Below are positions 27,417 to 40,516 of a DNA stretch of 64,000 bases, in pieces. The notes below the pieces were generated by a model. The model made no database searches. It was given only the letters and a program-made list of their open reading frames with translations, and had not been told where the DNA came from. How positions within the stretch are numbered: position 1 is the stretch's first letter; the number at the start of each line of letters is the position of its first letter. Both the position numbers and the translations under genes were made by a program. The DNA is from Candidatus Hodarchaeota archaeon (GTDB lineage: Archaea; Asgardarchaeota; Heimdallarchaeia; Hodarchaeales; Hodarchaeaceae), in NCBI GenBank assembly GCA_016839815.1, contig JAEOTM010000047.1:47620-111619 (forward strand). The letters are read 5' to 3'.

Positions 27417-30341
27417 TTAAGAACAATTCACACAACGAGCAACTACTTCTTCATTTTTGATTTTGACTTTAACCCTTCCACAAGATTCACAAACCTCTGT
27501 TCCACATTTCTTACAGACAGAAAGAAGGTCAGGAGCGAAAGAGTTCTTACATCCTTGACATTGCTTAGGCATATGTTCAGGACAATATGTAGCCTCTGTG
27601 TTTGGATCAAATGTACTACATTCACCACATAAACCCTGTCCACATACTTTGCATACTTCGGAGTGATCCAGGCAAGCAGTTTTTCCACACTTCTGGCAGA
27701 AAGAAATATGTTCACTACAGAATAGCTTAAAACAAGTAGTACACACAAATGTAGGAGGGGAAATTTCTCCTGCCAATAATGATTGATAATAGTTCTCGGT
27801 GCTTATTTGAGGACCACATCCCTCGCACATGAGTTCAGCATTCCCATTATATAGATTAAGATTGAGATGAAATTGGTTAATGTTTTCCACACTATCTCGG
27901 TTTTCTTTAATAGAAACAGGTATAGTTAAACGAGGGACCCAATATACTGATTTTTCAATAATCGACACATCTGCCTTACCTGGCCTATAGAGATCTGGTG
28001 GCACACCTTGACCCTTAAGAACTTCAATGGACTTATGAAATGCCTCATAATTTTCCTGTTTCTCTTTGAATAGCTCTTGTCGTTTCATTTCACTTTTTTT
28101 TATCTGCTTTCTAAGTTCTTTAGTTCGTTCTTCATGCCTCATCTGTTTAGTAGATGTAGAATCAATGGATCGTTCAATTGCTTTAACTGATCTTCCCTCT
28201 GCAACACGAGCTTTCCGCTCTCCCTCCAAACTTTCCACACGTATTAGTGTTTCATCAAGTTTTTGATTCTCGATTTGTAGTTTTTCCTCTATTCCGCTTA
28301 TTTGATTAGATAACTTCGATAATTCCTTTCCAACTTTTTTTCCTGCAAGTTTTGAAATTTCAGTTCGTTCATATTCTCGTAATCGCTCCTGATAGATCGA
28401 TTCGGCCTCTGGAAAAGGATTCTGTGTAAAATACCAAATCAAATTTTCAGGGAGTTTAGTAATCACCTCTTTATCAAATTCAAGGAATTTATAATCTGAA
28501 AGGGGTTGAATTGCTAGATCTCTTGCGGGAAGAGAGGATGCGTGAATTCCTTCAATTGTGGTAGAGTTCCAATCAATTTTTCGTAAATCAAATGTACGAG
28601 ACATTTCCTCTTTAATTTGTACTGGAAACAGTAATTGGCCTTCTTTAATTGTTCTTTTTATATCTATTAAGGTTTTTGTAAAATAAAGAGGAGAATAATA
28701 TATCTCATAATCCCCTACCTCAAGATAAATTCCATCATGATCAGGATTGCCACTAAGACTTAGTCTTTCATGAATAACAGCCGTGTGTTCCTTATTTTCT
28801 GGTTTGATTTTCGGACTGAGAAAGCGTTCTGTAATTTTCCCCATTGCAGGTTTTTTCGACTTGAATGAGATTGTTGAAGGTAATTTCTCTTTCTTGACCT
28901 CAGAAACCGGTTTTTCTTTTTTCAGCTCAGCTTTTTTTGGTTTAGGAGGTTTTAACGTAAGAGCGGTAATTTCAGAATTGGTTAATGGGCCTTTATGTAA
29001 GCTTAACAACCAACGCGTTTTTAACATATTGACCCCATGGAGAGGATTGTAAGCGATGAAGTTACCTGGTTTCAGTGCACGAATCTTTCCCATTAAAGAT
29101 TTAAACTCCTCTTCCGTACCACCACTCCCTTCAAACACAGGTTTTAACGCACCTTGAACTTTTGCAATATCTTGATTGGTAGCTAATCTACCTAGTACCC
29201 AAGTAGCGATATTTGACAGCCCCCGGTAATCTAAATCACCAGGATTCTGTGTTGCTAAAACACATCCTAGTCCTGCAGCTCTTGCTTGTTTTAATAATAT
29301 TAGAAGTGCAGTTTTTGAAGGAGGACTAAGGGAACCAGCGGGCATGAATCCATACAACTCATCGAAGTATATTATAGCCCGTAAACGGCTTGTACCACCT
29401 TTCGACCAAGCCCAGCGTTGTACTTCTCCCAAAATTTCTGCTACAAAAGTATTTTTTTCATCGGAATCCGTTATTTTGCGTAGATCAAAAACTATAATAG
29501 GAGTTTTGTTCTCTTTCGTAGCTAAGCCAATTAATTTATCAAAATCAAGCTCCACTCCCGGAACTGTACGTACCATTAGTGCATTTATGTTACGGGCCAG
29601 TTCCTGACATTTAGTACTGGATATGAATTTATCAACTGCAAGTGAACCAACTTTTTTAAACGGAGGATCTTGGATTTTTTCTATTAGAAGATCCAAACCT
29701 ACAACGTTCTTTCTTTCATTTTCCCATACATGACGAATTATATTGTTTAGATATATAACACGATTATCAGTAGAGGAAGATGTACCTATCCCAACACGAG
29801 ATAACAGTAATTGTATTTTCAGATCTAAAGCACTTAACACTGCATCAGGTGATTCTTCCATCATCTTACTATAGTTTTTGGGTTTTTCAAAATGAGGGGT
29901 TAGTGAAATTTGAACACCTGCAGCATTTTTAGGAGTAATTAGTATTGTAGCAACTCTATCTGAATATTCAGCTTCAGCTGAAAGGTAATCATCGCCAAAT
30001 GAGTCTTCAAGCTTTTCTTCATATAAATTGATCCAATCATCTGCGATTTCTTCTGGATCTCCTCCCCCCCGATCTTCAGCTTCGACTTTGGCGTGTATTA
30101 ATAGTCTATCTCTAGAAAAATCACCAAGTCCTATTCCTAATGCTCCAATATCTCCCTTGGGATCAATTGCTATTACTGGAATATTCGATCGAATCGCTTC
30201 TTCAACTATTGACTTGCACACAACCGTTTTTCCCGAGCCTGAGGCCCCTAATACTGCAGCATGCGTTAAAAAAGTCGTAGAGGGTAATTCAAATCTTTCA
30301 CCCTCACCTATTCGTCCGAGAAAAAATTTTGGATCAGTCAT
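27417..30341 (-). CDS. HerA/FtsK-superfamily ATPase (DUF87/DUF853-like) with coiled coil and Cys/His-rich C-terminus
   Basis: THAAVLGASGSGKT (Walker A), IDPKGD, IIYFDE (Walker B), LLKQARAAG, LATQNPGDLD and 12 CxxC/CxxH pairs. Confidence 0.85.
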   Translation of the reverse strand: MTDPKFFLGRIGEGERFELPSTTFLTHAAVLGASGSGKTVVCKSIVEEAIRSNIPVIAIDPKGDIGALGIGLGDFSRDRLLIHAKVEAEDRGGGDPEEIADDWINLYEEKLEDSFGDDYLSAEAEYSDRVATILITPKNAAGVQISLTPHFEKPKNYSKMMEESPDAVLSALDLKIQLLLSRVGIGTSSSTDNRVIYLNNIIRHVWENERKNVVGLDLLIEKIQDPPFKKVGSLAVDKFISSTKCQELARNINALMVRTVPGVELDFDKLIGLATKENKTPIIVFDLRKITDSDEKNTFVAEILGEVQRWAWSKGGTSRLRAIIYFDELYGFMPAGSLSPPSKTALLILLKQARAAGLGCVLATQNPGDLDYRGLSNIATWVLGRLATNQDIAKVQGALKPVFEGSGGTEEEFKSLMGKIRALKPGNFIAYNPLHGVNMLKTRWLLSLHKGPLTNSEITALTLKPPKPKKAELKKEKPVSEVKKEKLPSTISFKSKKPAMGKITERFLSPKIKPENKEHTAVIHERLSLSGNPDHDGIYLEVGDYEIYYSPLYFTKTLIDIKRTIKEGQLLFPVQIKEEMSRTFDLRKIDWNSTTIEGIHASSLPARDLAIQPLSDYKFLEFDKEVITKLPENLIWYFTQNPFPEAESIYQERLREYERTEISKLAGKKVGKELSKLSNQISGIEEKLQIENQKLDETLIRVESLEGERKARVAEGRSVKAIERSIDSTSTKQMRHEERTKELRKQIKKSEMKRQELFKEKQENYEAFHKSIEVLKGQGVPPDLYRPGKADVSIIEKSVYWVPRLTIPVSIKENRDSVENINQFHLNLNLYNGNAELMCEGCGPQISTENYYQSLLAGEISPPTFVCTTCFKLFCSEHISFCQKCGKTACLDHSEVCKVCGQGLCGECSTFDPNTEATYCPEHMPKQCQGCKNSFAPDLLSVCKKCGTEVCESCGRVKVKIKNEEVVARCVNCS

Positions 30342-30935
30342 TGTCTTTCCCTATATTTGATATTATGATGAAATTGAATTAAATTAATAAATGAATCCTT
30401 TAGTTCAAGGCCCAAATAAAACTATTCTATCTAAGAAACGCCAAAAATTTTCTGCTATACTGGTGTTGGAAGATGTCTACACAAAAGTTTCCTCTTATTA
30501 CATTAAGCGGTACTCCAGAAGAAATAGGTACACAACATGGAGAACTCCTAAAAGACAAAATTCATTCTACAGTTACTTGGTATAAAAAATAATCTCTTCC
30601 GATGAAGAACGTATTTTAACTCTATGTAAGCATTTTAAATGGGAGAATGGGATTTAAGGAATACAAGTCAGGTTCTGAATATAAATTCCAGGTTGATGAG
30701 CTTGAGAAAAAACTGATGTAATCAGTATTAATCCTAAATTATGGTTTTTCCCCTTTATTTCAAATTACTTTGTTGTGAATAGAATCGTTCATTAAAACAA
30801 AACGTTTTCATAATACATACCAAATCACAGTGCATAGGACGCATGATAGGCTTCCTGCTTAGCTTATCAGAACAGAATGGCATTGATTGGCTTTCTAAAA
30901 ACTCCCTATATGTAGAATTCTCAATAAGGAGATAA

Positions 30936-31529
30936 GTGTTCTTGGTAAATGTTGGTATATTAGGAGATATGAACTGCGGAAAAACCTCTGTTTTTGTACG
31001 ATTTATGAATTCATTAGCAGCAACCAACGAAAAGATAATCGCTGGTAGCCCAGGTGGACCAGAGATGTATACCACACAGACTGTAGATTTCATTCGATTC
31101 ACTCATAGGGGATTTATCCATGTTTTATATGGCACAGGTGGGCATACAACACCTATTACCGATTATTATCGAGTTTATGTTTTGAGAAACGCTAACCGAT
31201 TCCTTTGCATGTTTGATCTATCGATTGACTTAGATAGGCAACTTGAATTCTATCATAATCTTGAAATTCCCACAAAACAAGTAACGATTTTTCTTAACAA
31301 ATATGATCTGGCAAAAGAAAACTATGAGGAATATAAGGAAAAGGTAGAGGATTTCTTTATTAATGATCAAAAAAAATTAATAAAAGAAATTCTTCCCACT
31401 GTCGCCATTAAAGTTGAGGATAATCAATTTAAAAAGGAATCACAGAATTGTTTAAAGGGGATTTTAGATTTGTGTGAGTTTGACAAAGATGCGTCTGCAT
31501 TTGACGTTTGGGATGGACAAGGAAAATAA
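30936..31529 (+). CDS. Atypical small P-loop GTPase (MglA/CvnD-like)
   Basis: G1 GDMNCGKTS, G2 YTTQTVDF, G3 LYGTGGH, G4 NKYD, G5-like PTVA. AAGGAGA RBS. Confidence 0.75.
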   Translation: MFLVNVGILGDMNCGKTSVFVRFMNSLAATNEKIIAGSPGGPEMYTTQTVDFIRFTHRGFIHVLYGTGGHTTPITDYYRVYVLRNANRFLCMFDLSIDLDRQLEFYHNLEIPTKQVTIFLNKYDLAKENYEEYKEKVEDFFINDQKKLIKEILPTVAIKVEDNQFKKESQNCLKGILDLCEFDKDASAFDVWDGQGK

Positions 31530-31548
31530 TTAAACCTAGGTTTTAATA

Positions 31549-32460
31549 TTGGAGAATTCTGATCCATTTACACAACTTGTTGATACTCTAGCTGTAATTG
31601 AAAATCAAAACCGCATTCTTTGCCTAATAGCGGTATATTTGGGTCAAAAAGCCGATCAAAACACTATCCAAGGAATTACCGACATACTCTCAAGTCTTTT
31701 AGGTAAACATGAGCAATTTACTACGACAAAAACTCGGGGGTTGATCACCTCTCTTGTGAATGGTGGGATTCTGGAAAGAGAAAGAGAGAAAGTAATCAGC
31801 TCTACAAAAGTTTCTTTTCATTCGATCAGTTCTCTAGGCTATATTGTTTTGACTTATGTCCTACTGACATATGTCATAAGAATCGATCCTGCTTCAATCG
31901 AATGGGATACCAAAAGATTCAATGAATATACTGATTCTGAAGAAAAGATGATTTTATTCTCTATTGACACCTTAATTACTCAGGAGACTACTCTGAAACG
32001 GGTTTATACTTCACTTAGATCAGGAAAAGACCCTCGTAAAATTAAACTCTCAAAACCCTTAATTATCCCAGTCAAAAAAGTCTTTTCTGGGAATACTGGA
32101 TATAGAGTGTTTAAAATCTTTGAAGAACTAATTTGGGATTACTTACACAATAATACAGGATTCACTAAATTGGGACTTGAACAATCAACAGAAATACCAA
32201 CTGCATTAACTGGTTCATTGAAGAAACTGGATGGACTCTTTCTTCAACAAGAGAATTGGACAAAAGAAAGACGCTACCGATTATCAATTCAGGGGATTTT
32301 CATTTTACCAATCTTTGCGTTACTAATTAAGCATTTTTCTGTGGATAAATCGTTATTTCCTTCCCTAAAATTAGCGAGACTAGAGAAAGATGAAAATTAT
32401 TGGATTTCTCTGTCAAAATTAGGACATACGTTTTTTAAAACGGTATATAGGATCTCATAA
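31549..32460 (+). CDS. Hypothetical protein, probably two winged-helix domains
   Basis: ITSLVNGGILERE..FHSISSLG and LKKLDGLF..RRYRLSIQG each resemble a wHTH recognition helix plus wing. Confidence 0.5.
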   Translation: MENSDPFTQLVDTLAVIENQNRILCLIAVYLGQKADQNTIQGITDILSSLLGKHEQFTTTKTRGLITSLVNGGILEREREKVISSTKVSFHSISSLGYIVLTYVLLTYVIRIDPASIEWDTKRFNEYTDSEEKMILFSIDTLITQETTLKRVYTSLRSGKDPRKIKLSKPLIIPVKKVFSGNTGYRVFKIFEELIWDYLHNNTGFTKLGLEQSTEIPTALTGSLKKLDGLFLQQENWTKERRYRLSIQGIFILPIFALLIKHFSVDKSLFPSLKLARLEKDENYWISLSKLGHTFFKTVYRIS

Positions 32461-32539
32461 TCCATTTTTTCTCTTTAATAGGGAAAATTAAAAAGCGACA
32501 AAATGAAAGATAACCTCCGAATTCTCAGAGGAAACTCAT

Positions 32540-33940
32540 TTGCTAAAGCTTTCAGATGAATTGAATAATCTCCATTATTTACCACTTGTGGATATTCACA
32601 CTCATATAGGCCGGGTTAAAATCGCAACAACAAAAGGAACCTCCCAACGAATCAACCAACCTCAAGATATAACGAATTTATATCAAAAGTTACAATATGA
32701 AATTGCTTCTCGTATCAATCAAACCAAAGAGAATCATTATATTGATATACTTGAGGTAGAAACATGTGTAGAACCTCTCTTCCCAATTGTTAAATCATTA
32801 CTCAGCGAACAATCCACAGTGAAATCACGAGCTTGGTTAGTAGACAAAATTGTAACATTCCCTTTTAATGACTTATTCCACCTAAAAACTGATCCTAAAT
32901 TTGTAAAAAGTAATCGTTATGTTCGTCATCAGGTCAATACATTGGAAAATACTTTTAGATTTACTCCTTTTTGTCGTGTTGATCCTACAGACTCGGATGC
33001 AACAAATGAAGTTCAAGAGTCTATTAAGCTTGGAATGTATGGATTGAAATTACATCCGCTTTCTCAAGGTTGGATAGAAAGAATAAAATCAGAAGAAACT
33101 AAGGAGGTATTACAAATTGCGGGAGATCTCAATATTCCAGTGATTTTTGATGTACCGAACAAAGGAGTGGCTCTTGATATTACAGCCGTGACTCAAGAAG
33201 CGCGTGATGAATCAGAGTTTCCTGTTTCGGTAATACTTGGTCATACTGGATTTGATTATTCTTCTCCGGAGGTTTTTGAGTGTCTCTCACAAGAAGGAAT
33301 GTATGCAGAAACTTCAGGAATGAGAGGGAAGGATGTTGAAATCTTCTTTAATAATGTATTAGAAGTTCCTGACTGGGAGGATAAGCTCCTCTTCGGTACT
33401 GACCACAATTATTTTAGTGTTCTTCAAGCAACGGATGTAATTGCTTTTTTATTCTCAAATCAGTTCCGCACATTACTAATCGAAAACGGAATTCAAAAAC
33501 AACCTATAGATATTGCATTCAAAATCTTAGGAGCGAATTCCTTATCCCTAATACCTGTAGCATGGCAAAGAAAAGAAAATAAATCTCCTAAACTCAAGTA
33601 TAAAATCAACAAACAAGTATTTCTTCAGTTTCTCAAGAAGTTCATGAGTATAGAGGGAAATTACCAGAGGATTGACTTGGGGTATGATCAAGCAAAAGAA
33701 CAAATTGTGCAAATCCTCACTATAGGGGAGAAAACCTCTAAAGTATCATTTGTAATTTATGAAACGATAAAACGAGACGAAATTCTTTTGCACTCACTTC
33801 ATTCAGCAATTCAAAAAGTGAATTATAGAGAACATTCATTATTTCCAATACTTTCCTCGCAAAAATCATTGAGAAGAGCAAAAAAATTGTCCTTGGAGAA
33901 ACTAGAGACTACGATGTCGCAGAATATGTCGCAAGAGTGA
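32540..33940 (+). CDS. Amidohydrolase_2-family TIM-barrel metallohydrolase with C-terminal extension
   Basis: VDIHTHIG, GLKLHP, ILGHTG, YAETSG, LLFGTDH, ILGAN. Confidence 0.85.
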   Translation: MLKLSDELNNLHYLPLVDIHTHIGRVKIATTKGTSQRINQPQDITNLYQKLQYEIASRINQTKENHYIDILEVETCVEPLFPIVKSLLSEQSTVKSRAWLVDKIVTFPFNDLFHLKTDPKFVKSNRYVRHQVNTLENTFRFTPFCRVDPTDSDATNEVQESIKLGMYGLKLHPLSQGWIERIKSEETKEVLQIAGDLNIPVIFDVPNKGVALDITAVTQEARDESEFPVSVILGHTGFDYSSPEVFECLSQEGMYAETSGMRGKDVEIFFNNVLEVPDWEDKLLFGTDHNYFSVLQATDVIAFLFSNQFRTLLIENGIQKQPIDIAFKILGANSLSLIPVAWQRKENKSPKLKYKINKQVFLQFLKKFMSIEGNYQRIDLGYDQAKEQIVQILTIGEKTSKVSFVIYETIKRDEILLHSLHSAIQKVNYREHSLFPILSSQKSLRRAKKLSLEKLETTMSQNMSQE

Positions 33941-36900
33941 AAACAATGGAACTAAAAGACTACTTATTAGAAACACCGTTATACTTCTCACATGGGATTG
34001 AAGTCGAAAATCATCTTGTGGATACTACTTCAGGTGAAGTACTGGTGGGAAATGATCTTCTGAGTACATGGGAGGAGATGTTTTCTGGAGCAGCAAAATA
34101 TTTAGAGAAACTAAAGAAAGCAAAACATACTCCAAAAACTATAGCAAAGAAGATAGTCAAAATAGAAGTCGCTGAAGAGCTAAAAAGAGAGAAACGGTTA
34201 AATTTCATATTCGTTCATTACCGACTTGGAAAGAAAACAGTCCGAGTCAATGTATTTGGTCCTGATCCAAATATTTCACAAATTACCTGGTTATTAGAAT
34301 TAGTAACCCCTCCCTGTGAGTATCTTGAAGAGATCGCATTTTGGATCGACTCTTTATACGCAGCTGCAGCTCATGGATTATCAAAACTAAAGAGTAAGTA
34401 CAAGCTGTTACCTTTAGGCCTGAATCCCATGGAAAAACGAGTACGAAGCGGTTTAACCTGTGGAGAGCACCACCATATTGGTGTAGCGTCATTTATTCGA
34501 GCACCTGTTTATAATATGTTACGCAACTATACTCCTCATTTGATCGCATTAAGCGCCACTTCTCCTTTTCTTAATCAAAAACCTAGTAGTAAGATCATTG
34601 TTAAGGAGAAAGAAGGAAAAAAGCAAGTAATTAGTAGAGGTATTCATTCTTATCGTCTAGCAAATAATACAGGACAAATGGGACCAAACATTCCGCAATA
34701 CCTTCCCATTATAGATGATATGACTACTCGGGAAGATTTTGCACGCTCGATCCGCAAAGTTCCCCCTGAGGACCGAATGATAGATCTTTTCCCCTATACA
34801 GATTATTCAACAATCGAGCTAAGGTTCTTTGATGCCCAACCTTGGAGGGAAAATCGTTTAGCTATGGTGTTACTTATTCAAGCCTTAGCACAAAAGACGA
34901 AAAACTTGATTAAAGAGAGGAAAGCAGTTCCAACTGTTTCTTCGCAGAGTTTATATGAAAACCGTCGAAAAGCAATTCAATTTGGCCTATTAGCTCAATT
35001 TACAAGGGATGAAAATCTAACTGGGGAGTTTGCCTGGTTCTATAACTATGATATCGAAAATGGAGTAAAAGCATCTAAGTTAATGCATTCTGTCCTGGCA
35101 TTATTCATTTACATTGAGGATGAACTTCTTGATTTGAATTCAAAGTATGTTGACCAGGTTCTTCTACCTGTTTTAGGTTCGGAAAAATTTGCTCCTCCAT
35201 TTACAGTATGTGAATATCTCCTATCACTCTTCACTGAAAAAGGGGAAAATGCCAATGAATTCCTGAATGAAATCTATTATTCTGAAAAACTTACTTATCC
35301 TCCGAAAGTAGCAGGTAATTTTTCTTCTTTTCTTGTTGAAAACCCTCCCGACTCATTTTCAGAAGTTAGTGCAGAAAAAGACAACTTAACCAGAATCTTA
35401 AGGCAGGATATCGCCACACGAGATGTTTTCAAGAGTCAACCTCCTCCAAAACCAAAAAAGAGAAAGATAAAGAAACCTGTTGTCCCTAAAGAGATACCTG
35501 TTGTAAAACCAAAGAAAAAAGTCCTAGTTGAAACACCTAAGAAAGTCCCACCTAAGAAGAAGGAACCAACCAAAACACCAAAAACAAAACCTGCAAAAGC
35601 AAAAAAACCAACTAAAGTTCCCCTCCTAAAGAAGGAAGTAAAGAAAACTCCTAAACTTAAACCAGTAGAAATCGTGCAGGAAAAAGCAAGTCAGGTAATT
35701 TCTGCATTTGATGAAAATGAAGATCTCGAAATTTATTCCCCTATGATTGAGATAGAACCAAAATATCAGAAGATTAACTCTAAAATCGCAAATATTATGC
35801 GTACACGTCGTCAAGAAATTGAAGCAAAACGAGTTGTATTCTTCCGAGAGCATCTAAAAGCAGAAGAATCTAATTTTAAGCCATTCCCAAAGAAAAGAGC
35901 CGCTGTATTTCCCGCTTTAATATCTGGTTCTGAATTATTTGGTTATATTGAGCTTACATTCGGTGATATAAAGAAAGTAATGTACCAATTTAGGAACAAT
36001 CCTATAACTTTAAGATTTTACGATGATACCACGAATAAAGAGGTAGATACGTTAAGGACTTTCATTGATATATCAACACTTGAAAAACGCCAAATGGTAA
36101 GAATACCTTGTTCTATCGACCTGGGAGAACTCTATGGAAAGATTAAGCTAAGAGTGGAGGCGGTTACCTCAACAAATCATCGATTATTGCCCGAAAAGTT
36201 CAGTTTTACATTAGAACGCAAAGATGAAATTAGTATTTCCCCCAAGGAGTTCTATATCACAAGTAATTTTGGGTCTGTAGAATGCATTTACAAAGCAACC
36301 AATGACTCAAAGAAGGAAGAAAGAGGGGAGTTGACGCTCCTATTAGCTACACAAGCATCATCATCACCTATTGTCATTTATGAGGAAAAGTTCTCAATTA
36401 AACCTCGTGCATCCTATGAATTGGCACGAAGTATTGATTTGTCAATTGATTATCAGCATAGTTCCTTTTATATTTTAGCTCGTGTAACTACAGGGCTTTT
36501 AAAGAAAAACCGATCTTTTAAGAGCATTCATGTTCCTGTATTACGTGAAGTGGTTGTCGATTGGTCATTTGAAACCCACACTGGTTCTAAAAATGACTTA
36601 TGGCTGGGTGTAGAGCCTAAAACACACTATGCTGTAGATTTTGTGTTTCATTTCCTTAGGTCATTGCCACCTGTAAGTATTACAATCTATATTAACACAT
36701 TTCCTCAAGGTGAAACAAAAAAATTGACGAGTTTACGATTAAAACGTTTCATCGATAAAGGAGACGAATTCCGTGCGCCAACGGTCAAATTTAAGACTCC
36801 GAAAAAATGTGGTTACTTAATCTTTGACGCGCAGATCCGTACTGAAAAAGGAATTCTTCCCATGCACCTTATTTCAGAACCTATTGGGGTATATGCGTTA

Positions 36901-36945
36901 ACCACAAAATCTACTTTCGAACAAAGCCGGAATTTAGATTTGTAA
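33937..36945 (+). CDS. Large GCS2/YbdK-family carboxylate-amine ligase with Lys/Pro linker and beta-rich C-terminal domains
   Basis: HGIEVE, LELVTPPC, CGEHHHIG, PHLIALSATSPF, SYR, TIELRFFDAQ, ENRRKAIQFGL. Confidence 0.82.
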   Translation: MKTMELKDYLLETPLYFSHGIEVENHLVDTTSGEVLVGNDLLSTWEEMFSGAAKYLEKLKKAKHTPKTIAKKIVKIEVAEELKREKRLNFIFVHYRLGKKTVRVNVFGPDPNISQITWLLELVTPPCEYLEEIAFWIDSLYAAAAHGLSKLKSKYKLLPLGLNPMEKRVRSGLTCGEHHHIGVASFIRAPVYNMLRNYTPHLIALSATSPFLNQKPSSKIIVKEKEGKKQVISRGIHSYRLANNTGQMGPNIPQYLPIIDDMTTREDFARSIRKVPPEDRMIDLFPYTDYSTIELRFFDAQPWRENRLAMVLLIQALAQKTKNLIKERKAVPTVSSQSLYENRRKAIQFGLLAQFTRDENLTGEFAWFYNYDIENGVKASKLMHSVLALFIYIEDELLDLNSKYVDQVLLPVLGSEKFAPPFTVCEYLLSLFTEKGENANEFLNEIYYSEKLTYPPKVAGNFSSFLVENPPDSFSEVSAEKDNLTRILRQDIATRDVFKSQPPPKPKKRKIKKPVVPKEIPVVKPKKKVLVETPKKVPPKKKEPTKTPKTKPAKAKKPTKVPLLKKEVKKTPKLKPVEIVQEKASQVISAFDENEDLEIYSPMIEIEPKYQKINSKIANIMRTRRQEIEAKRVVFFREHLKAEESNFKPFPKKRAAVFPALISGSELFGYIELTFGDIKKVMYQFRNNPITLRFYDDTTNKEVDTLRTFIDISTLEKRQMVRIPCSIDLGELYGKIKLRVEAVTSTNHRLLPEKFSFTLERKDEISISPKEFYITSNFGSVECIYKATNDSKKEERGELTLLLATQASSSPIVIYEEKFSIKPRASYELARSIDLSIDYQHSSFYILARVTTGLLKKNRSFKSIHVPVLREVVVDWSFETHTGSKNDLWLGVEPKTHYAVDFVFHFLRSLPPVSITIYINTFPQGETKKLTSLRLKRFIDKGDEFRAPTVKFKTPKKCGYLIFDAQIRTEKGILPMHLISEPIGVYALTTKSTFEQSRNLDL

Positions 36946-37046
36946 TGGATTCGAACTTGTACTCATTTCTTTCAAAGGATTTAATTTTTAAAGGATAAAT
37001 CAACCTAAACTGAAACAATATAGGATTACCTAACCAAGGAGACTTC

Positions 37047-38330
37047 TTGATGACTCACAAAGTTGTAAATGTAGGAAATATTGAAGGACGGGCATATCTC
37101 CATACCCTAGATATAGAAAAACTAGGTATTAATGAATTTGATTATGTTAAGATGGTGACAGAATGGGAGGATTGGGGTGCAGTTCAAATACTTTCATCAG
37201 ATGAAGTGGAACAGGGCACTATCGCTGTAGATGGAAGTGTACTCTCATCAGCAAACATCTCAGATGGTGATGCAGTCGAAGTTGAAGCAGTAAAGGCCAC
37301 AGCAGGTATTAAATCTATCAAACTTGGAATCGAACCTCTCGCAGGACAAGAGGTTGAAGAAGCTATCTTATGGATCGCTACTGAATTCGAACAGCTATCT
37401 ACATTGCTCAAAAATCGTCCTGTCTTTAATAATTTACAGATCTCATGGGAAGATTGCCCTATTGGAAGTTTGACCGTGAGATTCTTAGGTGCAGATCCTC
37501 CAATCCCTGACGAGGATATCGGAATAGTTGATCCTACTGGTAGAGAAGTAGAAATTAACATTATTCCTTTCACTGAAATGAGTTTCAACGCTGTTTTGGT
37601 TCTTGATGTATCGGGTAGTATGTCTAAAAAGGATATGAAAGTTAAAAATATTAGTGGCGCTCTAGAAGGATTGAAGAAAGGCTTAGACGAATCTAATGAA
37701 CTTAATGCGTTTATAGAAAAGTTTCAAGATGGAAAGAAAGTTTCTAGAGTGGATGCGGCTGCAATGGCAATTATGTTGTTCATGTCACTCAAGATTGCAA
37801 AGGGATGGGGAGAACAGATCCAATTATTGACGTTTTCTGGAGAAGTGGAGAAATTTGAACTTGGGGAATCAAATGTTATTTCCTGTGTAGGTGAAACCAA
37901 AAAAGCAGGAATTGAGAGTATTATAGATCACGTTGTGCAAAAAACCGCAGAAAGTACTGGGTTGACCTTTTTGAGTGGGGCAATTGATCAAGCATACAAA
38001 AGTATTGATAGTTTTGACGACAATCCTACAATCCAAAAGAAAAATCCGACCATGATTATTGTTCTGACTGACGGTAATCCAAATAAAGGAAATGGACTTG
38101 GAGTAAATCCTATTCCAATTGTTAAGCAACAGGTTGAGCAATTTCCCGAAGTGGTTCTCTATGCTATCGGTTTAGGCGAAGCAGATCGACTAATGTTACG
38201 TAAGATTGGAGAAATGGGTCGTGGAGGAAGTCTGATGGCCGATGACCTGGAAACGTTAATCGATTTTTACGATTCATTAGCTCAAAATTTCCAGATGGTC
38301 GTTAAAATGAAAAAGGAACCAGAGGAATAA
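37047..38330 (+). CDS. CDC48/VAT N-domain fused to a VWA domain
   Basis: The first ~175 aa follow the CDC48_N/CDC48_2 pattern. The VWA MIDAS is intact (LVLDVSGSM, GLTF, IVLTDG), plus YAIGLG. Confidence 0.8.
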   Translation: MMTHKVVNVGNIEGRAYLHTLDIEKLGINEFDYVKMVTEWEDWGAVQILSSDEVEQGTIAVDGSVLSSANISDGDAVEVEAVKATAGIKSIKLGIEPLAGQEVEEAILWIATEFEQLSTLLKNRPVFNNLQISWEDCPIGSLTVRFLGADPPIPDEDIGIVDPTGREVEINIIPFTEMSFNAVLVLDVSGSMSKKDMKVKNISGALEGLKKGLDESNELNAFIEKFQDGKKVSRVDAAAMAIMLFMSLKIAKGWGEQIQLLTFSGEVEKFELGESNVISCVGETKKAGIESIIDHVVQKTAESTGLTFLSGAIDQAYKSIDSFDDNPTIQKKNPTMIIVLTDGNPNKGNGLGVNPIPIVKQQVEQFPEVVLYAIGLGEADRLMLRKIGEMGRGGSLMADDLETLIDFYDSLAQNFQMVVKMKKEPEE

Positions 38331-38576
38331 AAGTTAAATTATCCTCCAATATTTTCTTCTTTTCATAACATCTGGTGACACCTAAATTTATAAAACTCTC
38401 TAATCCTTTCCCATAAGAGCTCAAGAAGGAAAATTTTTCACCTAATACATTTCAAATTATTTGTAATCCAAATAAAATCCTTAGGAAGAAGACTAAATTA
38501 TTTATACTTTGATGAAGAGTGCATAGACCCCAACTTGTAAATGAGCTTTTTTGGGAATGAGTGTTTAGGTGAACAT

Positions 38577-40100
38577 ATGCCAGAATACAAAGTTGTAACA
38601 TCCGATATTGATCCAAAAGACGCTGTTCTAGTTTCTCCGGAAAATAATCAACAAATAGTTACTCAAGCAAAATTTACTCTAGCTTTTAAAGGAGCAGAAG
38701 AAAAAGTTGGTCAGGTTTTCAAGTTAAAATGCTTCTTAGAAGAAGATGAAATTGGTTTGTCTCAGGTGATGATGAATAAGCTTGGAATAACAGAAGGAGA
38801 AAAAGTACGTCTGCAATCAATTGGACGGACAATCTCCAGAAGCTTTCCTCTAATTAAACAACGAATAACTCAACCTGGAAGAATGTTCACTAAAAACGAA
38901 ATAGATCAAATAATCAGCGATATTACTCTCGACAACATGACCCCACTTGAAGAATCGGTTTTTCTAACCTCTCAGATGCTTCAAGAATGGAGTATTGGAG
39001 AAATTGAATGTTTAACCAACGCAATAGCTCATTCAGGGCAAATGATCAATTGGGGAGATACAGTTATCTTTGATAAGCACTCTCTTGGTGGGGTTCCAGG
39101 TAACAAGGTAACTCTTTTAGTTGTTCCTATAATTGCTGCAGCTGGATTAACTATTCCTAAAACTTCGTCACGAGCTATTACCAGTCCTTCAGGTACAGCT
39201 GATACCATGGAAGCTCTTGGATGTAAAATTGAATTTACTATTGATGAAATGGTTGACATTGCTCACAATATTGGGGGACTTATTGCTTGGACAGGTGGTT
39301 TAAACATTGTTCCTGCTGATGAGAAAATAATTCGTGATGTTCAATATCCTTTAGGTATTGATCCCGAACCAATGATGATGGCTTCAGTGATCTCCAAGAA
39401 AGTTGCGATGGGAGTTAAGTTCCTTGTTTTAGATATTCCAACGGGATATGGTACTAAGGTTGCTAGTTTAGATGATGGTAAACGGATTGCTCATCGATTT
39501 GCAGAGTTAGGACGGTTACTTGGAATACGAATTGAAAGTGGAATAACTTACGGTAGCTCACCTGTCGGTAATGCCATTGGACCTGGATTAGAGGCTAGAG
39601 AAGCATTGACTAGCTTGATGAATCCCTTAGAAGCTCCACATTCCTTAGTAGGGAAAAGTACCTCACTAGCAGGTATTCTTTTGGAAATGGCTGGTAAAGC
39701 TATTGCTGGTGCAGGTCAAGAAATGGCATATGAGATTTTGAACTCTGGCCAGGCCTATCAGAAATTCCAAGAAATTCTTGAAGCACAGAATGCGGAACCT
39801 GACTTAAAACCAGAAAACATTGAAGTTGGGTCAGCAACATATGACTATCTAGCTCCTCAAAGCGGTTATGTTGTAGAAATCAATAATAAAGTAATCGTTC
39901 GGGCTGCTCGAGCAGCTGGAGCTCCTATGGACAAACGTGCTGGTGTGTACTTCCATAAAAAGAAAGATTCTGTGAAACGTGGAGAACCCTTATTTACTTT
40001 GCACGCTCCTTCAGAAAAAAAGTTATCAGCTGCTCAAGCTGAATTAACTAAAGGAGATTTACCTGTTACTATTGAAGGTATGCTTCTAGCACGTGAATGA
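38577..40100 (+). CDS. deoA: AMP phosphorylase (archaeal thymidine phosphorylase family)
   Basis: DKHSLGGVPGNK, IPKTSSRAITSPSGTADTME, ASVISKK, LDIPTG, ARAAGAP. Start at ATG 38577 after a GGTGA RBS. Confidence 0.92.
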   Translation: MPEYKVVTSDIDPKDAVLVSPENNQQIVTQAKFTLAFKGAEEKVGQVFKLKCFLEEDEIGLSQVMMNKLGITEGEKVRLQSIGRTISRSFPLIKQRITQPGRMFTKNEIDQIISDITLDNMTPLEESVFLTSQMLQEWSIGEIECLTNAIAHSGQMINWGDTVIFDKHSLGGVPGNKVTLLVVPIIAAAGLTIPKTSSRAITSPSGTADTMEALGCKIEFTIDEMVDIAHNIGGLIAWTGGLNIVPADEKIIRDVQYPLGIDPEPMMMASVISKKVAMGVKFLVLDIPTGYGTKVASLDDGKRIAHRFAELGRLLGIRIESGITYGSSPVGNAIGPGLEAREALTSLMNPLEAPHSLVGKSTSLAGILLEMAGKAIAGAGQEMAYEILNSGQAYQKFQEILEAQNAEPDLKPENIEVGSATYDYLAPQSGYVVEINNKVIVRAARAAGAPMDKRAGVYFHKKKDSVKRGEPLFTLHAPSEKKLSAAQAELTKGDLPVTIEGMLLARE

Positions 40101-40516
40101 TGATAATTACGAAAATGAAACCATCGGCATCCCTTCCTCTTGATCTTCTATCCACATTCGTAGATTATTGTAACTCGATAACTGATTCCACTGTTATTGT
40201 TGTCGAAGGGAACCGAGATATCGAAGCATTAAGATCAATTGGTTTAAATTTAACAAGTGGAAAAATACTAGCAAAAAAGGGATTATCTCTAGCCCAAACC
40301 GTTGACCAAATCTATAAATTTCCTGTGATAATTTTACTTCTTGATTTTGATAAAGCAGGAGCTCGTATACGGGGAAAATTAAAACAGGAAATTCAAAAAC
40401 GCAAAGGTCATGGACTTATTGATTCTTTCCCAAGGCAATTACTGTATAAATTTTGTCGTGCCGCTCGTATAAACGAAATCGAAGAAATTAAACAATTTTC
40501 AGATTTAATTCTCTAA
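40097..40516 (+). CDS. Small Toprim-domain protein (UPF0292-like)
   Basis: IVVEGNRDIEAL, LLLDFDKAG. Confidence 0.85.
   Translation: MMIITKMKPSASLPLDLLSTFVDYCNSITDSTVIVVEGNRDIEALRSIGLNLTSGKILAKKGLSLAQTVDQIYKFPVIILLLDFDKAGARIRGKLKQEIQKRKGHGLIDSFPRQLLYKFCRAARINEIEEIKQFSDLIL

Follow-up and report, generated by a model that had tools for sequence, protein, structure and literature searches.

In gamma-glutamylation pathways, of which PuuA/PuuD is an example, the genes for a ligase and a hydrolase occur together, and the two enzymes act one after the other on a single amide intermediate. In the Pup system of Actinobacteria (PafA, Dop and Mpa), a glutamine-synthetase-fold amide ligase works with an enzyme that is its own paralogue and with an AAA+ ATPase, and VWA proteins acting as adaptors of metalloenzymes (CbbO/CbbQ, NorD/NorQ and MoxR-VWA) form an established class. 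Here we analyze a six-gene locus in a 64,000-nucleotide stretch (the window) of contig JAEOTM010000047.1 from Candidatus Hodarchaeota archaeon (assembly GCA_016839815.1, positions 47,620 to 111,619 of the forward strand), which an earlier note had read as one candidate undescribed system. We find that the locus is two joined units. Unit B is a conserved, Asgard-specific trio of genes for a YbdK/GCS2 carboxylate-amine ligase, an Amidohydro_2-type (PF04909) TIM-barrel enzyme (the hydrolase, for short) and a Cdc48N-VWA protein; unit A is an add-on with genes for a HerA/FtsK-type P-loop ATPase, an atypical small GTPase and a putative winged helix-turn-helix (wHTH) protein. The idea of one system holds for the trio, whose genes co-occur, are linked and have congruent trees, but not for all six genes, as the families of the GTPase and the wHTH protein were seen in a single genus only and the ATPase also occurs without the trio or unlinked to it. 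The parts all come from known superfamilies; for their combination, its Asgard-only range and a predicted heterodimer we found no published description.

Each of the closest described systems differs from the trio. The ligase has the same catalytic domain as the YbdK/GCS2 enzymes (PF04107; E. coli YbdK, 1r8g; Salmonella, 1tt4), with their ExE, E, HxH and ExR motifs, but is 2.5–4 times longer and has a linker and a tail of beta-sandwiches in addition, scores far under the NCBIfam equivalog cut-offs, is restricted to Asgard archaea and is always co-inherited with the PF04909 enzyme and the Cdc48N-VWA protein. The likeness to the Pup system, which we use as a working analogy only, lies in the glutamine-synthetase-fold amide ligase, a potential undoing enzyme and, within the genus, a nearby gene for a ring-type ATPase; however, the second trio enzyme is a TIM-barrel metalloenzyme and not a ligase paralogue, and the ATPase is HerA-type and not AAA+. 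The ligase gave no PafA or Dop match in a Pfam scan at E up to 0.01 and no such chain in a PDB profile search at E up to 1; it is YbdK-like. No Pup-like, proteasome or AAA+ gene was seen in the sampled loci, in a screen of open reading frames (ORFs) of 70 aa or more. PuuA/PuuD differ in their enzyme families, and such pathways are without a VWA subunit or a non-catalytic tail and have transporters and dehydrogenases that are missing here. With CbbO/CbbQ, NorD/NorQ and MoxR-VWA the trio shares a VWA protein that bears a metal-ion-dependent adhesion site (MIDAS) and is predicted to sit on a metalloenzyme, but it has no MoxR/AAA+ partner, its VWA domain is fused to a Cdc48-N domain and a ligase is inherited with it.

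Distribution and descent of the trio

To follow the three genes through the Asgard archaea, we profiled the ligase, the VWA protein and the hydrolase in the same 251 Asgard genomes. The counts were near-identical (134, 135 and 132 genomes, respectively), and the same families were positive or negative for all three: the trio is present in 5/5 genomes of family f4, 49–50/59 of f11, 5/5 of f12, 50–52/54 of f14 and 6/6 of f23, and in 0/26 of f3, 0/10 of f5 and 0/19 of f17. An orthologous trio partner was encoded at most 20 kb from the ligase gene in 32 of 36 loci drawn from ten families, and contigs of Thor-, Frey-, Heimdall-, Loki-, Sigyn- and Asgardarchaeia carry two or three of the genes within ~12 kb.

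The ligase and hydrolase trees have one deep split in common, which separates two types and with which the VWA tree is compatible. Type 1 comprises Hod, Heimdall f4, Sigyn/Loki2 and one copy each from Frey and Jord; type 2 comprises Thor, f10, Asgardarchaeia, f27, f29, Lokiarchaeia f14 and the other Frey and Jord copies. Jord- and Freyarchaeia genomes encode two complete sets, one of each type, which together with the congruent trees indicates that the trio duplicated and diverged as a unit. Apart from this ancient pair, the trio is single-copy per genome and its trees track taxonomic families, a pattern that indicates vertical inheritance. For ligase relatives at large, we scanned 185,579 species genomes and obtained 269 matches. 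The best 80 of these bear titles of Asgard metagenome-assembled genomes for all but three, whose titles read Bathyarchaeia or Thermoproteota, probably through mislabelling; a set of 5.8 billion proteins held only Asgard-type relatives and fragments. As an evolutionary unit the trio is solid, whereas its chemistry is not.

This mode of descent bears on the suggestion that the locus serves in conflict or defence. The ATPase matches the PADLOC mad8 and HerA models, the ligase tail evolves fast and one genome of the genus (G002) has insertion sequences at the locus, all of which would suit such a role. By contrast, the other five proteins have no PADLOC match and no other mad genes are present, as MADS would need, the trio follows the taxonomic families with one set per genome outside the ancient pair of types, and the flanking genes are ordinary metabolic and informational ones (AMP phosphorylase, methionyl-tRNA synthetase and phosphofructokinase). 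We therefore consider a defence or conflict system highly unlikely.

Other genes stand beside the trio in particular lineages. In Lokiarchaeia-type genomes, a protein of ~610 aa without a Pfam match always precedes the tail-less ligase (L071:12261–14102 and 13 other loci, in f14, f27 and f29) and does not detectably resemble the ligase tail. The long VWA proteins of f27 and f29 and the 613-aa partner in Lokiarchaeia-type operons were considered as fusion evidence for a contact between tail and VWA protein and were rejected, being unlike the ligase tail. The type-1 trio of Jord- and Freyarchaeia is accompanied by two extra conserved genes, of ~510–520 aa and ~110 aa, with no firm Pfam match (L051:12029–13555, L053, L063 and L030:20341–22379). 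In Thorarchaeia, a long gene (887 aa in L029:22543–23426; also L044:1–1152 and L046:1–725) is divergent from the hydrolase-VWA pair, with weak similarity to the hydrolase at its N-terminus (E 1e-4 to 1e-8). Ras/Arf-type small GTPases encoded near the trio in other classes were taken as chance neighbors, given how abundant genes of this kind are in Asgard genomes.

Active sites and a predicted enzyme-subunit complex

The ligase of the window matches GCS2 with 30.9 bits (cut-off 21), and its family profile finds YbdK (1r8g) at E 6.5e-15 in a profile search of the PDB. In 26 sequences from all lineages, residues E22, E24, E121, H178, H180, R196, H201, R240, E294, R296 and D299 are invariant, and every metal- and ATP-ligand motif of the YbdK/GCS2 enzymes is present. 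From this conservation we infer that the protein is an active YbdK-type ATP-dependent carboxylate-amine ligase. Its best score against the NCBIfam glutamate-cysteine ligase equivalogs was 59.7 bits, under a cut-off of 371; some Asgard proteins match GshA-type InterPro families (review, PMC7278568).

The catalytic domain (residues ~1–491) is followed by a Lys/Pro-rich, strongly basic linker (~495–580) and then by a helix and three immunoglobulin (Ig)/CARDB-like beta-sandwiches (590–1002), a tail modelled with confidence, at a predicted local distance difference test score (pLDDT) of 86. The linker is typical of Heimdallarchaeia ligases and is absent in Thor. Most ligases carry 450–930 extra non-catalytic residues with beta-sandwich domains, and profile comparison showed that the tails of the long-form ligases are homologous across lineages. 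The fold matches of the tail in the window ligase are generic sandwich arrays, such as the MG domains of complement and alpha-2-macroglobulin. Outside the ligase's own family, the best multi-domain matches are the C-terminal beta-barrels of transglutaminases (TG3, factor XIII and protein 4.2; Z 10.4–11.2 over ~200 residues; TM 0.45 to the TGM1 cluster), but the likeness is a generic tandem Ig-like arrangement at ~10% identity, and the ligase is without a transglutaminase core. One 1239-aa ligase homologue (P0126) has double-zinc-ribbon domains (PF12773 and PF17032), which are reminiscent of the Cys-rich tail of the ATPase.

The hydrolase of the window has no Pfam match of its own and is assigned through its orthologues, 23 of 31 of which match PF04909 (best E 1.5e-18). 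In these 31 sequences D18, H20, H22, K170, H172, D204, H235 and D288 are invariant, including the TIM-barrel metal ligands (HxH, His, His and Asp: H20, H22, H172, H235 and D288), and the protein ends in an extension of ~120 aa. The family profile weakly matches solved structures, mostly PF04909-type decarboxylases, and characterized PF04909 members are mainly decarboxylases, hydratases and lactonases. The role of eraser, which the earlier note had given to this enzyme, was assumed from the name of the fold and has not been borne out by these matches.

The third protein fuses a Cdc48-N/VAT-N type double-psi barrel to a VWA domain. In the window copy, VWA scores 34.3 bits (cut-off 23.8), VWA_2 is matched as well and CDC48_N (PF02359) reaches 27.8 bits, under its cut-off of 35.1; among the orthologues, 20 of 26 match CDC48_N (E up to 0.001) and 24–25 of 26 match VWA. 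The family profile finds VAT-N (1cz4, E 0.0028) and p97-N. The MIDAS (DxSxS, Thr and Asp) is complete, with D187, S189, S191, T307 and D342 invariant.

The hydrolase and VWA genes are the trio pair most often directly adjacent, and we modelled the complex of their products from alignments in matched genome order. The interface score ipSAE was 0.82, 0.76 and 0.82, against 0.00 for the best of three controls, and the score mark is one reached by 58 of 80 solved complexes and by 2 of 110 mismatched pairs. At least 59% of the contacts are common to the runs, and the partners have a pLDDT of at least 78. Contacts on the hydrolase side include the loops just after H22, D204, H235, S259 and D288, which make up the catalytic face, so that the model places the Cdc48-N domain, together with a portion of the VWA domain, over the active-site entrance. 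The predicted interface involves residues 40–57 and 127–134 of the hydrolase and 40–41, 67–72 and 97–100 of the VWA protein. We know of no solved complex of this kind, and the model is therefore unlikely to reproduce one that the predictor had been trained on. The prediction supports a hydrolase-VWA heterodimer but falls short of showing one.

A VWA domain with an intact MIDAS, predicted to lie on a catalytic and metal-binding face, would also suit maturation: a VWA adaptor would remodel or metal-load the TIM-barrel enzyme, as CbbO, NorD and CoxE do, with the HerA-like ATPase as a stand-in motor in Hodarchaeales. However, a MoxR/AAA+ gene lies beside the VWA gene in none of the loci examined, most trio-bearing lineages are without the ATPase, and the strict co-inheritance of the ligase would be left unexplained. 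An activase of this type appears distinctly improbable.

What the trio may act on

The reading that we favor, at a probability that we place a little short of even, is that the trio acts on a peptide or protein target. We favor it because most ligases carry large docking domains, because a MIDAS/Cdc48-N subunit predicted to gate the second enzyme is strictly co-inherited with them and because the neighborhoods sampled in the different lineages have no transporter or additional pathway gene that recurs with the trio. The ligase would couple a carboxylate with an amine of the peptide or protein at the expense of ATP, with docking supplied by its tail and by the VWA/Cdc48N subunit. The hydrolase-VWA heterodimer, in which the VWA subunit is predicted to sit over the catalytic face of the TIM-barrel enzyme, would then remove that linkage or convert it further; writing and erasing of a tag by the trio is possible. 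Such chemistry, its macromolecular target and any coupling to unit A are what we infer, whereas the co-occurrence, linkage, co-divergence and intact active sites of the three genes and the prediction of a hydrolase-VWA interface are results of the analysis.

Several points weigh against a peptide or protein target, and some of them favor its strong rival, a small-molecule pathway. In such a pathway, the ligase would make an amide metabolite, of gamma-glutamyl type or otherwise (for example, a thiol, a solute, a precursor of a cofactor or a transient gamma-glutamyl intermediate), the PF04909 enzyme would take the next step (hydrolysis, decarboxylation or ring chemistry) and the VWA protein would be structural or regulatory. 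The solved relatives of the ligase are all YbdK-type and act on small molecules, this genome has no GCS2 gene besides that of the trio ligase, which is compatible with a role in making a small thiol, and the PF04909 members act on small aromatic or heterocyclic acids. Gamma-glutamylation pathways, too, typically have a ligase and a hydrolase encoded in one operon. In Lokiarchaeia-type genomes, the ligase is tail-less and forms a bare pair with the hydrolase, the VWA gene being 14–107 kb off. Furthermore, the PF04909 structures matched are mostly those of decarboxylases, so the name amidohydrolase is no proof of amide cleavage; no substrate, product or tag gene is evident; and the hydrolase-VWA complex is a model only. 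Finally, the six genes are jointly present or jointly missing within the genus, so unit A could be more than a passenger.

Not all of the evidence suits a small-molecule pathway. The long beta-sandwich extensions of most ligases, the low score against glutamate-cysteine ligase models, the lack of a recurring transporter or pathway gene and the strict co-inheritance of a MIDAS-bearing Cdc48N-VWA protein, predicted to cover the active-site face, all count against it. We regard it as a possibility to be taken seriously without being probable, and a peptide or protein target remains the reading that we prefer.

Add-on genes, locus layout and implications

Unit A is a lineage-specific addition in one Hodarchaeales genus and is separable from the trio. 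At its N-terminus the ATPase matches DUF87 (30.6 bits; cut-off 23.2), with the Walker A motif GASGSGKT, and it matches HerA chains in PDB weakly (E 5e-4); a core of ~470 residues is followed by a coiled coil and then by a Cys/His-rich, zinc-ribbon-like tail. Orthologues occur in 14 of 16 genus genomes, in f19, in f23 and in the HodQ lineage. Those of f19 and f23 are full-length, yet f19 is without the trio and in f23 the gene lies 0.5–1 Mb from both trios, indicating that the ATPase is an independent family that became linked to the trio in Hodarchaeales. A second Hodarchaeales lineage encodes an HTH protein and an orthologous ATPase 3–6 kb upstream of a hydrolase-ligase pair, in a different arrangement, and the link between ATPase and trio in this order may be functional.

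The GTPase matches the GTP_EFTU and small_GTP models. Its G1 and G4 motifs are intact and its G3 motif reads LYGTGGH, with the Asp absent; these motifs are invariant in all 11 orthologues, and no orthologue was found in the sampled loci outside the genus. The wHTH protein has no Pfam match and was called from language-model leads and from a poor model (pLDDT 64.5) whose fold weakly matched MarR/ArsR regulators. Its family is present in 17 of 21 genus genomes and in 0 of 61 other genomes of the class, and no relative of the wHTH protein or the GTPase was found among the neighbors of the ATPase or the ligase in other lineages. The MarR/ArsR best matches fit a local transcription factor, and unit A, with the wHTH protein as a transcription factor, is probably regulatory and not part of the conserved machine. 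The domain calls of the earlier note thus differ in their footing: HerA-type, GTPase, GCS2 and VWA were matched directly, the hydrolase through its orthologues and the wHTH through weak leads. Its account of non-standard fusions and motif changes was accurate for the ligase linker and tail, the LYGTGGH motif of the GTPase and the coiled coil and Cys-rich tail of the ATPase.

In a whole-genome search, 17 of the 21 genomes of the genus had the ligase. The order and orientation of all six genes are unchanged in six other genus genomes, which are those with contigs long enough, at 47–83% protein identity and between varying flanks. Three genomes (G005, G006 and G010) are without the ligase, VWA, hydrolase and wHTH genes; the ATPase is also missing in G006 and G010, and G005 retains only a 47%-identical ATPase paralogue. 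One deletion of a contiguous block would equally give this joint presence and absence. In a further genome (G015), the hydrolase gene comes after the wHTH gene and the locus contains 300 N; we rejected the reading of this locus as an ATPase, GTPase and wHTH set without the trio, since the hydrolase gene adjoins the wHTH gene, and the ligase is probably missing because of the assembly gap. The proposed check of neighborhoods and phyletic profiles thus gave a divided answer, with the trio kept across Asgard lineages and the adjacency of all six genes confined to the genus.

These results also bear on the proposal of a six-part reversible tagging machine, with the ligase as writer, the hydrolase as eraser, Cdc48N-VWA as adaptor, the GTPase as switch and the HerA-type ATPase as motor. 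Such a machine would account for a block that stays intact across the genus while its flanks change, for six genes that are co-present or co-missing there and for the HTH and ATPase genes found again near the hydrolase-ligase pair in a second Hodarchaeales lineage. Yet the loss of a whole block is uninformative on function, the trio runs without the add-on genes in most Asgard lineages, the GTPase and wHTH families were not found outside the genus, and ATPase orthologues are present in f19, which has no trio, and in f23, where they are not linked to it. To our knowledge, moreover, no VWA adaptor of a HerA-type ATPase has been described. The six-part machine is improbable in our view and ranks below both a peptide or protein target and a small-molecule pathway.

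The layout of the locus is given in Table 1. An ORF scan reproduced the six ORFs, their coordinates and the ATPase gene head-to-head with the others, as well as the gaps of 19, 79, −4 and 101 bp between the five plus-strand genes. The ligase start may shift: the copy in the protein database is 999 aa long, which would place the start at the ATG at 33946 and replace the 4-bp overlap by a 5-bp gap.

Table 1. Features of the locus and its downstream flank, in window coordinates
Feature	Positions	Strand	Length	Assignment
HerA/FtsK-type P-loop ATPase gene	27417–30341	−	974 aa	Add-on set at genus level (unit A)
Divergent spacer between ATPase and GTPase genes	30342–30935	none	594 bp	
Decayed AAT/peptidase-C45 gene (Ntn-hydrolase, PF03417)	30473–30720	+		Remnant within spacer
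ORF within the remnant	30473–30592		39 codons	
Atypical small GTPase gene	30936–31529	+	197 aa	Add-on set at genus level (unit A)
Putative two-winged-helix (MarR/ArsR-like) protein gene	31549–32460	+	303 aa	Genus-restricted family (unit A)
Amidohydro_2-type (PF04909) metal-dependent TIM-barrel enzyme gene	32540–33940	+	466 aa	Core trio (unit B)
YbdK/GCS2 carboxylate-amine ligase gene	33937–36945	+	1002 aa	Core trio (unit B)
Cdc48N-VWA protein gene, without ATPase domain	37047–38330	+	427 aa	Core trio (unit B)
AMP phosphorylase gene	38541–40100	+	519 aa	Next after VWA gene
Stand-alone Toprim protein gene	40097–40516	+	139 aa	

An alignment of seven spacers between the ATPase and GTPase genes shows an insert of ~330 bp in this genome only, with the remnant of a decayed AAT/peptidase-C45 gene. 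The 39-codon ORF of the remnant shares 72% identity with the N-terminal end of an AAT/peptidase-C45 gene that is still intact (341 aa) and sits at the corresponding place in G020, and G002 has a 71%-identical copy between its ATPase and GTPase genes. In G015, the GTPase and wHTH genes are separated by an inserted M29 aminopeptidase gene. The cluster tolerates insertions and has thus recruited amide- or peptide-cleaving enzymes twice. A DDE transposase gene and repeated 346-aa genes split the six-gene cluster of G002 (B3_Heim; L024:5887–7143 and L078) over two contigs.

Downstream of the VWA gene, the stand-alone Toprim gene trails the cluster in 7 of 8 other genus loci, with or without an intervening AMP phosphorylase gene, and is probably a housekeeping gene kept in synteny. 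A functional link to AMP phosphorylase was considered, as the VWA family profile matches an AMP phosphorylase structure (4ga5, E 0.011) weakly through the N-domain, and was rejected: direct BLAST found nothing, and the weak match is explained by the double-psi barrel fold that the N-terminal domains of the two proteins have in common. The AMP phosphorylase gene is also missing beside the cluster in several genus genomes, so that its adjacency to the VWA gene is inconsistent.

A bolder reading takes both units together. The trio would be an Asgard-only protein-modification system that, with ATP, sets and takes off an amide-linked mark (for example, of gamma-glutamyl type), with a VWA subunit akin to the N-terminal half of eukaryotic DEPDC5/Iml1, wired in Hodarchaeales to the GTPase, the wHTH protein and the ring ATPase; it would be an archaeal forerunner of a eukaryote-type GTPase-linked module. 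A search of this genome with IML1 (PF12257) returned nothing at E up to 10, there is no DEPDC5 chain among the best 60 of 123 structure matches of the VWA profile, and we give this reading a slim chance.

Asgard archaea are the closest known archaeal kin of eukaryotes, and gene sets of unknown function that are kept across their lineages are rare leads to cell biology. The trio is such a set: about half of the Asgard genomes sampled carry it, its inheritance as a unit predates the separation of the classes, and in it an amide ligase that uses ATP is combined with domains for protein docking (Cdc48-N, VWA and Ig-like). Should its targets be proteins, the trio would amount to a post-translational system that is new and differs from both ubiquitin and Pup; should its product be a metabolite, it would establish a chemistry specific to Asgard archaea.

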